A stretch of 4,300 bases of DNA. Source: a virus (Duplodnaviria > Heunggongvirae > Uroviricota > Caudoviricetes). Made by a program: the position numbers and the translations under genes. The DNA is taken from the IMG/VR virus record IMGVR_UViG_3300029459_000083. One strand, written 5' to 3'. The number at the start of each line of letters is the position of its first letter. Within the stretch, counting starts at the first letter, position 1. Below the pieces are notes generated by a model. It was given only the letters and a program-made list of their open reading frames with translations. It was not told the DNA's origin and searched no databases. Below are positions 1-4,300 of the stretch, one piece after another.

Positions 1-2685
1 TACCATATCCGCGGTCGTATCATCCAGGTGCCGTCAAACTATGACCCGGAAAAACGCACGTACAGTGGTATCTGGGACGGCAGTCTGAAACCGGCATACA
101 GCAACAACCCGGCCTGGTGCCTGTGGGACATGCTGACTCACCCGCGCTACGGCATGGGAAAACGTCTGGGGGCGGCGGATGTGGACAAGTGGGCGCTGTA
201 TGCCATCGGGCAGTACTGCGATCAGACGGTCCCGGATGGTTTCGGGGGGACCGAGCCGCGGATGACCTTTAATGCGTACCTGGCACAACAGCGTAAGGCG
301 TGGGACGTTCTCAGTGATTTCTGCTCGGCGATGCGCTGTATGCCGGTATGGAACGGCCAGACGCTGACGTTCGTTCAGGACCGCCCGTCGGATGTGGTGT
401 GGCCGTACACCAACAGCGATGTGGTGGTGGATGATAACGGCGTGGGATTCCGCTACAGCTTCAGCGCCCTGAAGGACCGCCACACGGCGGTGGAGGTGAA
501 TTACACCGACCCGCAGAACGGCTGGCAGACCTCCACGGAACTGGTGGAAGACCCGGAAGCCATACTGCGCTACGGACGCAACCTGCTGAAGATGGATGCG
601 TTCGGCTGTACCAGCCGCGGTCAGGCCCACCGTGCCGGACTGTGGGTGATAAAGACCGGACTGCTGGAAACGCAGACGGTGGATTTCACGCTCGGGTCAC
701 AGGGGCTGCGGCACACGCCCGGAGACATCATTGAAATCTGTGATAACGACTACGCCGGAACCCTGACCGGCGGACGTATCCTGTCCATCGACGCCGCCAG
801 CCGTACACTGACGCTGGACCGTGAGGTGACACTGCCGGAGACCGGTACCGCCACGGTGAACCTGATTAACGGCAGCGGTAAGCCGGTGAGTGTGGACATC
901 ACCGCACACCCCGCGCCGGACCGGATACAGGTCAGTACCCTGCCTGATGGCGTGGCGACATACGGTGTGTGGGGACTCTCCCTGCCGTCACTGCGTCGTC
1001 GCCTGTTCCGTTGTGTCGCCATCCGGGAAAACACGGATGGCACCTTTGCCATCACGGCAGTGCAGCACGTACCGGAAAAAGAAGCCATCGTGGATAACGG
1101 GGCCAGCTTTGAGCCGCAGTCAGGCACCCTGAACAGCGTTATTCCTCCGGCAGTGCAGCACCTCACGGTGGAGGTGAGTGCCACAGACGGCCAGTATCTG
1201 GCGCAGGCGAAATGGGACACGCCGCGGGTGGTGAAAGGTGTGCGCTTCAGTCTGCGTCTGACCAGCGGAAGGGGGGATGACAGCCGCCTGGTGACCACCG
1301 CCATCACCGCAGACACGGCGCACCGTTTCAGTGGTCTGCCGCCCGGGGAATACACCCTGACGGTCAGGGCGATTAACAGCTACGGCCAGCAGGGCGAACC
1401 TGCCACCACCACGTTCCGGATTGACGCCCCGGCAGCGCCTGCCACCATTGAACTGATACCGGGGTATTTTCAGATAACGGCGGTCCCGAAACTGGCTGTA
1501 TATGACCCGACGGTACAGTTTGAATTCTGGTTTTCGGAACAGCAGATTGCGGATATCAGGCAGGTTGAAACCTCCGCCCGCTATCTTGGCACGGCGCTGT
1601 ACTGGATAGCTGCCAGTATCAATATCAAACCGGGCCATGATTATTACTTTTATATCCGCAGTGTCAACCTGGTGGGCAAATCGGCATTTGTGGAGGCCGT
1701 CGGCCGGGCCAGCGATGATGCCGAAGGCTACCTGAATTTTTACAAAGGGCTGATTAATAAAACACATCTCGGTAAAGAGCTGCTGGAAAACGCTGAACTG
1801 ACGGAAGATAACGCCAGCAGACTGGATGAGTTTTCGAAAGAGTGGAAAGACGCTAACGATAAATGGAATGCCATGTGGGGCGTCAGAATTGAGCAGACCG
1901 AAGACGGTAAGCATTATGTCGCTGGGCTTGGCCTCAGCATGGAGGACACGGAGGACGGTAAACTGAGCCAGTTTCTGGTTGCCGCTAACCGTATCGCGTT
2001 TATTGACCCGGCAAACGGGAATGAAACGCCGATGTTTGTGGCGCAGGGCAATCAGATATTCATGAACGACGTGTTCCTGAAATACCTGACGGCTCCCACC
2101 ATTACCAGCGGCGGTAATCCTCCGGCATTTTCCCTGACACCGGACGGGCGGCTGACGGCGAAAAATGCTGATATCAGCGGTAACGTGAATGCGAATTCCG
2201 GGACGCTCAACAACGTCACGATTAACGAGAACTGTCGGGTTCTGGGAAAATTGTCCGCGAACCAGATTGAAGGCGATCTCGTTAAAACAGTGGGCAAAGC
2301 TTTCCCCCGGGACTCCCGTGCACCGGAGCGGTGGCCATCAGGGACCATTACCGTCATGGTTTATGACGATCAGCCGTTTGACCGGCAGATTGTTATTCCG
2401 GCGGTGGCATTCAGTGGCGCTAAGCATGAGAGAGAGCATACTGATATTTACTCCTCATGCCGTCTGATAGTGCGGAAAAACGGTGCTGAAATTTATAACC
2501 GTACCGCGCTGGATAATACGCTGATTTACAGTGGCGTTATTGATATGCCTGCCGGTCACGGTCACATGACGCTGGAGTTTTCGGTGTCAGCATGGCTGAT
2601 GAATAACTGGTATCCCACAGCAAGTATCAGCGATTTGCTGGTTGTGGTGATGAAGAAAGCCACCGCAGGCATCAGTATCAGCTGA
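1..2685 (+). CDS. J: Tail-tip host-specificity protein J (central tail fibre), 5'-partial; C-terminal ~894 codons present
   Basis: Open frame runs from base 1 (codons [27 protein letters not shown]...) to TGA at 2683-2685. The ORF track's start at 28 is an internal GTG; there is no stop in 1-27, so the gene begins upstream of the window. The translation closely resembles what I recall of lambda gpJ ([69 protein letters not shown]). Two fibronectin-III-like segments are visible (~1144-1440 and ~1441-1720). GC content falls from about 60% in the 5' part to about 42-50% in the 3' part. Confidence 0.93.
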
Positions 2686-2752: not shown

Positions 2753-2824
2753 ATGCGTAAAGTTTGTGCAGCCATTTTGTCCGCAGCCATCTGTCTGTCC
2801 GTATCCGGTGCGCCTGCATGGGCG
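2753..2824 (+). other. Sec signal peptide of Lom (24 aa, predicted cleavage after AWA)
   Basis: MRK, then a hydrophobic core AAILSAAICLSV, then SGAPAWA / SEHQ: an n-h-c layout with an A-x-A signal-peptidase-I motif. Confidence 0.7.
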
Positions 2825-3356
2825 TCTGAACATCAGTCCACACTGAGCGCGGGGTATCTTCATGCCCGTACGAACGCCCCCGGCAGCGATAATCTGAACG
2901 GGATTAACGTGAAATACCGNNNNNNNNNNNNNNNNNNNNNNNNNNNNNNNNNNNNNNNNNNNNNNNNNNNNNNNNNNTGAGGATGAGCAAAAAACGCGCT
3001 ACAGAGATACCCGCTGGCATGAAGATTCCGTGCGTAACCGCTGGTTCAGCGTGATGGCGGGGCCGTCTGTACGCGTGAATGAATGGTTCAGCGCGTATGC
3101 GATGGCGGGTGTGGCTTACAGCCGTGTGTCGACTTTCTCCGGTGATTATCTTCGCGTAACTGACAACAAGGGGAAAACGCACGACGTGCTGACCGGAAGT
3201 GATGACGCTCGCCACAGCAACACGTCTCTGGCGTGGGGGGCTGGCGTGCAGTTTAACCCGGCCGAATCCGTGGCCGTTGATGTCGCTTATGAAGGCTCCG
3301 GCAGTGGCGACTGGCGCACTGACGGTTTCATTGTGGGTGTCGGTTATAAATTCTGA
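2753..3356 (+). CDS. lom: Outer-membrane protein Lom (Ail/Lom/PagC/OmpX-family beta-barrel), interrupted by an assembly gap
   Basis: ATG at 2753 with an upstream RBS. The N-terminal 55 codons (MRKVCAAILSAAICLSVSGAPAWASEHQSTLSAGYLHARTNAPGSDNLNGINVKY) and, after the N-run, 125 codons (EDEQKTRYRDTRWHEDSVRNRWFSVMAGPSVRVNEWFSAYAMAGVAYSRV...GDWRTDGFIVGVGYKF, stop 3354-3356) both closely match lambda Lom as I recall it. The ORF track splits the gene into 2753-2980 and 3030-3356 only because of the gap; the pre-gap frame (mod 3 = 2) and post-gap frame (mod 3 = 0) differ, so the gap length is nominal. The C-terminal ...GYKF ends in an aromatic residue, as is typical of beta-barrel outer-membrane proteins. 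Confidence 0.88.
2920..2977. other. Assembly/scaffold gap (58 N) inside lom
   Basis: A run of 58 'n' characters. The flanking lom reading frames are out of register, and the TGA at 2978-2980 in the upstream frame is an artefact. Confidence 0.99.
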
Positions 3357-3383
3357 TTAGCCAGGTAACACAGAGTTATGACA

Positions 3384-3409
3384 GCCCGCCGGTTCTGGTG
3401 GGCTTTTTT
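3384..3409 (+). terminator. Rho-independent terminator downstream of lom
   Basis: GCCCGCC (3384-3390), loop GGTTCT, GGTGGGC (3397-3403) gives a 7-bp stem with one G-U pair, followed by TTTTTT (3404-3409). It starts 28 nt after the lom stop codon. Confidence 0.5.
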
Positions 3410-3418
3410 GTGGGGGGA
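3410..3418 (+). promoter_or_regulatory. G-rich Shine-Dalgarno region for stf
   Basis: GTGGGGGGA sits immediately upstream of the ATG at 3421; the purine-rich GGGGGA portion can act as an SD, though the spacing is short. Confidence 0.4.
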
Positions 3419-3420
3419 AT

Positions 3421-4300
3421 ATGTCAGTACAGATTTCAGGTGTGCTGAAGGATGGTACAGGAAAACCGGTACCGAACTGCACCATAGAGCTGAAAGCCGT
3501 GAGAACCAGCGAGACGGTGATAGTCACCACGGTGGCGGAGTGTCAGCCAGGGGAAACAGGCAGTTACACCATGCAGGTTGAGCCGGGGCGTTATCGTGTG
3601 ACCCTGTGCGTGGAAGGCCGTCAGCCGGCATGCGCTGGCGAGATTGATGTCATGGCAGACGACGAGCCGGGCACACTGAATGCGTTTCTGCTGCGTGAGC
3701 AGGACAGCACTTATTACCCTGAATCGCTGAAAAAACTGGAAGACGCGGCGGATGCGGCTGTCAGCAGGGCAGAGGAAGCGGCGAGGAAAGCGGAAACGGC
3801 GGTTGGGCCACAGGGACAGAAAGGCGACACCGGGGCAACGGGTCCGCAGGGACAGAAGGGAGACAAGGGTGATACAGGCCCACAGGGGCCAAAGGGTGAT
3901 AAAGGAGACAAGGGCGATAAGGGGGATACCGGCCCGAAAGGTGAGCAGGGCGACCCGGGAGGTCCACAGGGACCGAAGGGCGACAAGGGGGATACAGGAG
4001 CTGCAGGCCCGGCAGGACCGCAGGGACCGAAAGGGGATACAGGAGCCACAGGTCCGGCAGGACCGCAGGGACCGAAAGGGGATACAGGAGCCGCAGGCCC
4101 GGCAGGACCGCAGGGACCGAAGGGAGATACGGGAGCTGCAGGCCCGGCAGGACCACAGGGTCCAAAAGGGGATACGGGAGACACAGGCCCGGCAGGACCA
4201 CAGGGACCGTCAGGAAGTCCTGACAGCGGACTGTTTGGTGTCGGTTCTTTTGTCCTTGCGGCGTATTATGCGACGAGTTATTCGGGGGATATGGCACCGG
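3421..4300 (+). CDS. stf: Side tail fibre protein (Stf-like) with a collagen-like Gly-X-Y domain, 3'-partial
   Basis: ATG at 3421 opens a frame that stays open to the window end; it is absent from the ORF track because no stop is reached. The N-terminus [26 protein letters not shown]... resembles the lambda Stf (orf-401) N-terminus [26 protein letters not shown]... as I recall it. The 64-nt spacing after lom matches the lambda layout. An Ala/charge-rich linker ([23 protein letters not shown]) precedes about 45 uninterrupted G-X-Y triplets ([80 protein letters not shown]...), after which a non-collagenous segment begins ([28 protein letters not shown]). Confidence 0.88.
3805..4215 (+). repeat. 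Collagen-like triplet repeat tract (about 45 G-X-Y triplets, 9-bp GGN-CCN-NNN periodicity)
   Basis: Reading in the stf frame gives Gly at every third residue from codon 3805 to codon 4213, with Pro, Gln, Lys, Asp and Thr in the X and Y positions. Confidence 0.9.
3991..4209 (+). repeat. 45-bp direct tandem repeat, about 4.9 copies, in-frame (encodes [15 protein letters not shown])
   Basis: Units GATACAGGAGCTGCAGGCCCGGCAGGACCGCAGGGACCGAAAGGG begin at 3991, 4036, 4081, 4126 and 4171 (the last partial), each differing from its neighbours by only a few substitutions. Confidence 0.85.

Follow-up and report, generated by a model that had tools for sequence, protein, structure and literature searches.

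A collagen-like side tail fibre gene with an exchangeable tip in a probable lambda-like prophage of Escherichia coli

Here, we describe a fibre gene in a 4,300-nucleotide stretch of the IMG/VR virus record IMGVR_UViG_3300029459_000083, hereafter the window, which carries three genes, namely J, lom and a long open reading frame (ORF) for a phage fibre, all on the plus strand, as are all features given below unless stated otherwise. We are highly confident that the fibre ORF represents the 5' five-sixths of a side tail fibre gene in the stf position of a lambda-like Escherichia coli prophage, and that it has the EPclC architecture, in which an N-terminal phage-fibre domain is followed by collagen and by a C-terminus that is not of the PfC type. 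This assignment draws on the identities of the protein domains, on conserved gene order, on a length polymorphism of the collagen repeat and on the tip domain and chaperone gene that follow the shaft in related loci. A first-pass annotation had divided the protein into a lambda-like N-terminus, an Ala-rich linker, a collagen shaft and an unrelated distal part, and all four segments are present close to where it had placed them, with some changes to their boundaries and interpretation that we describe below.

The fibre ORF begins with an ATG at position 3421, which is also the start codon that RefSeq gives in the closest relatives, and its frame stays open through position 4300, resulting in 293 uninterrupted codons in the window. 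The gene occupies the stf position, with the order J-lom-fibre corresponding to the lambda order J, lom, stf, tfa. The Pfam model for the prophage tail fibre N-terminal domain (PF08400) covers residues 1-127 (E 4.5e-39; 134 bits versus a cut-off of 26.6), and residues 1-90 align with lambda Stf without gaps at 61% identity, with 22 of 26 positions identical in residues 1-26, 17 of 34 in residues 27-60 and 16 of 30 in residues 61-90. The likeness to lambda Stf, originally thought to comprise about 25 residues, is therefore real over that stretch but runs on for some 90 to 127 residues. Moreover, residues 1-91 (3421..3693) match the Stf 1-91 chain of PDB 9E7M/9MGH (E 1.8e-28), and we assign them to the tail-attachment, or collar, domain. 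In the Ur-lambda virion, Stf 1-91 has been solved as a six-stranded beta sheet with a helix; 12 such collar domains ring the junction of gpV and gpM, with four fibres per virion, and in lambda Stf the domain is followed by a flexible linker of about 10 residues (92-101) and then by a trimeric coiled coil (PMC12617516). By positional match to this linker, residues 92-101 of the window protein (3694..3723) are probably flexible as well. The adjoining Ala/Glu/Lys-rich segment, residues 102-128 (3724..3804), aligns by position with the start of the proximal coiled coil of lambda Stf and corresponds, again by position, to the base of the PCoil region as defined by Ghosh et al. (2012; PMC3368898). 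Residues 102-127 are likely to be helical, and the segment is probably a trimeric coiled-coil stub. The helical Ala/Glu/Lys-rich linker of the first-pass annotation can accordingly be located at residues ~102-127 (nt 3724-3804), but rather than lying outside the phage domain it belongs to the PF08400 model and, by position, to the start of the Stf coiled coil.

Residues 129-267 consist of 46 Gly-X-Y triplets, close to the 45 or so estimated at the outset, which fall into sets of 18 and 28 that are separated by a single residue, Q183. Because the region matches the Pfam Collagen family PF01391 with 75.6 bits versus a cut-off of 27.2 (E 2.5e-21), its collagen character is far beyond chance. A search for the two domain families had been set beforehand as a check on the fibre assignment, and both PF08400 and PF01391 scored well above their curated cut-offs. 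The first collagen segment comprises residues 129-182 (18 triplets; 3805..3966) and the second residues 184-267 (28 triplets; 3970..4221), while the interruption itself, GDPGGPQG at residues 177-184 (3949..3972), contains the extra residue Q183 and is also found in the related loci L001-L003. The X positions of the 46 triplets are occupied by Pro (21), Asp (15) and Ala (5), among others, and the Y positions mostly by Lys, Ala, Thr and Gln. Two long ORFs on the minus strand, 3714-4184 and 3761-4297 (156 and 178 aa, both Pro-rich), overlap the collagen region and are without support as genes; they arise because the G+C-rich Gly-X-Y codons are read in reverse.

Within the second collagen segment, Tandem Repeats Finder identified a 45-nt tandem repeat of 4.9 copies (3988..4209; 89% matches), which encodes a 15-residue unit. 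In the ten relatives that share both the 128-residue N-terminal region and the tip with the window protein, the collagen exceeds that of the window by 0, 45, 60 or 90 residues. Since all of these differences are multiples of 15 residues, we conclude that the 45-nt repeat expands and contracts. The repeat also accounts for the frequent breaks or collapse of assemblies at the fibre gene. In the protein cluster of WP_101973536.1, for example, most members are partial and begin or end within the collagen repeat.

The non-collagenous segment starts at 4222 rather than at about 4216 as first proposed, and positions 4222..4300 encode the first 26 residues (268-293) of a C-terminal tip domain of 85 residues. 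These 26 residues are identical to those in the prophage of E. coli PM4-5 (L001), in which the domain ends with GLFQRIS 59 codons further on. This prophage is the closest relative of the window, with a nucleotide identity of 97.4% over positions 1-2919 and 98.5% over 2994-4209, and its fibre protein of 442 aa has the same N-terminus and tip and six extra 15-residue collagen units. In all 16 related loci, which were drawn from complete genomes and IMG/VR prophages, the frame runs on to a conserved 85-residue C-terminal domain (...GTWRACGP...GLFQRIS), and a stop codon immediately after the window, named in advance as an outcome that would speak against a fibre, was seen in none of them. The distal part thus continues beyond the window as a tip in the relatives, as the first-pass annotation had suggested, but this tip is short. 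If the window protein follows its relatives, it would be 352 aa long, like WP_101973536.1 of strain STEC299. A tfa-type chaperone gene, which the first-pass annotation had proposed to look for downstream, is present in each of the 14 loci with enough sequence beyond the tip: ~202 codons in length, it lies ~10 nt downstream of the fibre gene, and its product matches DUF4376 at residues 81-188 (E 7.7e-17), a domain that the cited portions of two papers describe as the conserved C-terminal domain of tail-fibre chaperones (PMC7882524, citing North et al. 2019; PMC10579305). A PDB sequence search with the DUF4376 protein returned no match, and the fibre proteins of PM4-5 and O104:H4 had no exact match in the protein collection. 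The pair of tip and chaperone occurs in 33-56 of 5,426 complete E. coli genomes and is always chromosomal.

Module shuffling is directly visible in this fibre gene, and the earlier suggestion of domain shuffling is borne out because the same tip is found on other shafts and the same N-terminus and collagen are found with another tip. In E. coli 55989 and O104:H4, the tip as in the window is joined to a lambda-like PfN (PF08400) domain and a coiled coil of 116 residues. Conversely, strain SHP24 carries the same PfN and collagen, which match the window at 95% nucleotide identity as far as nt 4199, with another tip of 74 residues attached; this tip belongs to the same family as the window-type tip and has motifs in common with it, although the two are only 33% identical, and it is followed by the same chaperone gene, the DUF4376 proteins of SHP24 and PM4-5 being 96% identical. 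The SHP24 fibre gene (positions 1909-2961 of locus L005, from NZ_CP104788.1) is labelled an incomplete pseudogene in RefSeq, yet it reads as an intact ORF of 350 aa. In addition, an enterobacterial protein of 652 aa combines PfN, two collagen domains, Pf2-like repeats and the window-type tip, and the tip domain alone ends the fibres of unrelated phages. The gene therefore offers a clean example of modularity, with a collar, a shaft of variable length and exchangeable tips, which is of relevance to host-range engineering in lambdoid phages.

Collagen-like side tail fibres of E. coli prophages are already known, in kind since 2012 and nearly in sequence, as RefSeq annotates near-identical proteins; the first-pass annotation had likewise regarded such fibres as known. 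Ghosh et al. (2012; PLoS One 7:e37872, PMC3368898) describe collagen-like proteins of prophages in enterohaemorrhagic E. coli, which are built from PfN (PF08400), PCoil, Col, Pf2 and PfC and fall into four architectures. According to their account, the X position strongly favours Pro and Asp/Glu and the Y position Lys/Arg, Ala, Gln and Thr, and an interruption of the GDPGGPQG type (G-X-P-G-G-P-X-G) is conserved in the collagen-like proteins of E. coli prophages. EPclC and EPclD proteins have C-termini that bear no relation to PfC, and those of the EPclC type frequently lack PCoil. The window protein shares with EPclC, and with the protein of E. coli 55989, the PfN domain with its (Gly-X-Y)n, the G-X-P-G-G-P-X-G interruption, the X/Y preferences and a non-PfC C-terminus of 85 residues that ends in GLFQRIS, of which 26 residues lie in the window and the remainder is taken from the relatives; the long PCoil is absent, as it often is in EPclC. 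The Pfam PfC family (PF06820) did not match the tip of the relatives, and the sequence of this tip is unlike the EPclA C-terminus. The 55989 protein differs in its 116-residue coiled coil and in an N-terminal domain that is closer to that of lambda; it is 467 aa long, and its length and domain lengths agree with the entry for EC55989_1078 in the published table (EPclC*, 467 aa, PCoil 116, Col 140; PMC3368898). The same table gives two collagen domains for the canonical EPclC proteins (479-520 aa), whereas the window protein has a single domain that is split by one residue, and EPclC* variants have one or two; the window protein would therefore be a variant within the type. We file the window gene as a putative EPclC-type fibre that lacks PCoil and has a single, interrupted collagen domain, an assignment that rests on the tip common to the EPclC* entry, with canonical EPclC represented here by its table entry.

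The other known systems differ more clearly. EPclA from E. coli O157:H7 prophages (ECs2717 and its copies; the Stx phage tail fibre of locus L018) resembles the window protein in PfN, in the collagen region and in the expected trimeric behaviour, the latter two being experimentally supported in EPclA. As reported in the cited part of Ghosh et al. (PMC3368898), recombinant EPclA forms trimers with a collagen signature in circular dichroism and high thermal stability, has a C-terminal trimerisation domain, and appears in electron microscopy as a dumbbell with a hinged stalk. However, EPclA contains a PCoil of 116 residues and a PfC domain (PF06820) and is followed by another downstream gene, while the window protein has only ~26 putatively helical residues between collar and collagen, and we do not count it among the EPclA or PfC fibres. 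Lambda Stf, in turn, shares the position after J and lom, the collar domain (61% over 90 residues) and the hairpin in the spacer upstream of the gene. It differs in its shaft, which is a long alpha-helical coiled coil, and in its T4 gp37-like tip, which binds OmpC (PMC12617516), compared with the collagen shaft and the other tip family of the window protein; this gp37-like distal domain defines lambda Stf itself and not the wider PF08400 family, to which the window protein belongs by its collar and its genomic position. The chaperones also differ, as the relatives of the window encode a DUF4376 protein and the lambda gene is annotated only as "tail fiber assembly". As the 2012 study had already described such fibres and characterised them in part, the present gene is of little importance by itself.

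The tip domain has a wider distribution. Pfam holds no family for the PM4-5 tip and none common to 25 members of the tip family. A tblastn search of the tip against 50,697 phage genomes gave no match, and at the sensitivity of tblastn the genomes sequenced from isolated phages lack this tip type. A word-indexed protein search that used just the E. coli tip returned only five partial E. coli proteins. In contrast, when 1.84 billion representative proteins were searched and a profile built from diverse tips was then used, as proved necessary, a family of C-terminal domains emerged whose members are 75-100 residues long. Of the 12 matches in the representative search, P0006 (3,658 aa, 28 matching stretches) and P0008 were set aside as repetitive proteins that matched in many short pieces. 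The family is represented in Escherichia, Citrobacter and Acinetobacter as well as among many metagenomic proteins, and its members share the motifs VGSF-FA, AGS-L, LSGTWRCLG and LFQRIS. The tip profile also matches the last 79 residues (883-961) of gp47, the 962-aa long tail fibre of the Pseudomonas myophage Pa193 (E 1.2e-10). Over its last ~80 residues, gp47 shows homology to the tip and carries the motifs VGS-, GTWRC-G and LFQR-, but the rest of the protein, a myovirus baseplate fibre, differs and contains neither PfN nor collagen. In PDB 9B45, gp47 is built for residues 1-340 only, and the deposited chain sequence includes the tip-homologous end.

An AlphaFold2 model of the tip from an alignment of 25 sequences is all-beta, with a pLDDT of 78 and a pTM of 0.72, whereas an alignment of three sequences gave a useless model (pLDDT 41). 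Foldseek related the 25-sequence model to predicted structures of annotated tail fibre proteins from Pseudomonas, Aeromonas, Roseobacter, Sinorhizobium and Campylobacter phages (probability 1.0; TM 0.5-0.77). Weak matches of the tip profile to KIR immunoglobulin domains (E ~1e-3) covered only the GTWRC-G motif and were regarded as due to chance. The tip is therefore a module that recurs commonly in phage tail fibre proteins and stands outside curated families and solved structures, which is the only mildly new point of our analysis, and a structure of the tip together with its chaperone would fill a small gap.

By homology, we propose the following arrangement for collar binding, copy number, triple helix, hinge and tip. 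Three chains would form one fibre, and the 91-residue N-terminal beta domains, as in Ur-lambda, would make up a 12-copy collar where the gpM ring meets the last gpV ring of the tail tube, corresponding to four fibres per virion. The flexible linker of ~10 residues and the Ala-rich helical stub of ~26 residues would then gather the three chains, and the 139-residue Gly-X-Y region would wind into a collagen triple helix, a stalk of ~40 nm at ~0.29 nm per residue, with a probable kink or hinge at the one-residue interruption GDPGGPQG. Trimer, triple helix and hinge are here carried over by analogy from the experimental properties of EPclA. The 85-residue C-terminal beta domain would trimerise and, together with the DUF4376 chaperone, set the register of the chains from the C-terminal end, and the tip may carry or form the surface that contacts the host. 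Stf of lambda speeds up first adsorption (PMC12617516), and the window fibre could similarly let the phage attach quickly and reversibly at first, with J, the central fibre, binding to its own receptor afterwards. Furthermore, the 45-nt repeat would allow the shaft to lengthen or shorten in 15-residue steps of ~4.3 nm. A broader version of this proposal, which we put forward only tentatively and with considerable doubt, is that the tip is a widespread uncurated beta domain that caps collagen, coiled-coil and beta fibres of sipho-, myo- and podoviruses and that acts with DUF4376 chaperones as a general module for starting C-terminal folding and binding the receptor, and that changes in the 45-nt repeat reflect adaptive tuning of fibre reach in 4.3-nm steps.

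Several points weigh against the assignment of the window ORF to a complete and working side tail fibre. Both the fibre and the prophage are known here from gene sequence alone. The window ends 26 residues into the tip, and what follows, the 3' end of the gene with its stop codon and then the chaperone gene, is expected from relatives that are at most 98.5% identical; an exact copy of the window allele was not found in the 5,426 complete E. coli genomes. The tip model is a monomer from a 25-sequence alignment, Foldseek of this model against the PDB gave no match better than E = 1, and the tip-homologous part of Pa193 gp47 is unmodelled in 9B45. Finally, many database copies of the fibre protein are partial and broken in the repeat. 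Because short-read assemblies break, and may collapse, in the 45-nt repeat, the repeat copy number in the window is to be treated with caution and could itself reflect assembly collapse.

The division of labour between tip and chaperone can also be read differently. The tip may serve only as a knob for trimerisation or docking, with host recognition provided by a virion-bound DUF4376 protein, comparable to TfaMu on Mu or to the chaperone "caps" of Alteromonas phages. This reading gains some appeal from PHROGs, where the downstream protein is placed among families labelled "tail fiber protein" (phrog_1141, E 5.6e-80), and from the cited parts of the literature, in which TfaMu stays bound to its fibre (PMC7882524, citing Haggard-Ljungquist et al. 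1992 and North et al. 2019) and chaperone caps are described (PMC10579305). The loci of SHP24 and PM4-5, where two tips with only 33% identity are paired with DUF4376 proteins that are 96% identical, point in the same direction. However, the DUF4376 protein is represented here by its genes and not as a part of a virion, and members of the tip family form the ends of fibres in many phages, and we consider recognition by the DUF4376 protein a serious but rather unlikely alternative. The self-trimerisation of the EPclA PfC domain, as given in the cited sections of PMC3368898, is compatible with recognition through either component, and the two are not mutually exclusive.

We regard it as improbable that the prophage is defective and its fibre gene a decayed remnant that retains the architecture but yields no fibre. 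Many defective lambdoid prophages exist in E. coli, several EPclA copies have lost their frame according to the cited part of Ghosh et al. (PMC3368898), the lom gene directly upstream shifts frame across an N run, and RefSeq labels the SHP24 homologue incomplete. Yet 293 codons of the fibre gene and 894 codons of J are uninterrupted in the window, full-length genes are kept in the relatives, with the chaperone gene in 14 of 16 loci, and the SHP24 copy is an intact ORF, while the N run in lom may be a gap of arbitrary length. That the protein is instead a collagen-like adhesin or virulence factor on the surface of the lysogen, as suggested by the collagen-like surface proteins of Gram-positive pathogens (discussed in the cited sections of PMC3368898) and by the neighbouring lom, a member of the lysogen-expressed Ail/Lom outer-membrane family, is highly improbable given that no signal peptide or anchor is evident in its sequence, that it begins with the domain by which lambda Stf is fastened to the tail, that the gene lies in the stf position with a fibre chaperone gene downstream in relatives, and that a terminator-like hairpin separates it from lom.

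Upstream of the fibre gene, positions 1..2685 encode the C-terminal 894 codons of J, the central tail fibre or tip attachment protein, with matches to the J-specific Pfam families Ig_J, Ig_J_second, Phage-tail_3, Phage_Tail_Tip and Ig_GpJ_C. Overall, J is 72% identical to lambda J. Its last ~95 residues, the C-terminal receptor-binding domain (chiefly nt ~2400-2685), are only ~35% identical to those of lambda J, and the receptor of this central fibre is probably not LamB, which lambda uses. The lom gene (2753..3356), for an outer-membrane protein of the Ail/Lom family, is broken by a run of 58 N at 2920-2977, and PF06316 matches both of its halves (E 1.9e-28 and 3.6e-64), which lie in different frames across this run. 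From codon 55 to the point where the frame resumes there are 61 nt, compared with 54 nt in the closest relative, and thus either the length of the gap is arbitrary or this genome carries a frameshift.

An Rfam scan of the window gave no match. Hairpins resembling terminators, each with a T run, lie on either side of lom, at 2704-2723 and 3383-3404, the second of which is conserved in lambda. In a consensus scan, this second hairpin has 9 pairs, 6 of them G-C, and is followed by TTTTTT, and with its T run it occupies 3383..3409 in the spacer between lom and the fibre gene. Its fold energy is -16.1 kcal/mol (z -2.3), the lom-stf spacer including the hairpin is conserved with lambda in identical position, and the hairpin is likely to function as a terminator. 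Since hairpins with T runs flank lom, this arrangement suggests that transcription of lom ends short of the fibre gene, which may be read only by antiterminated late transcription.

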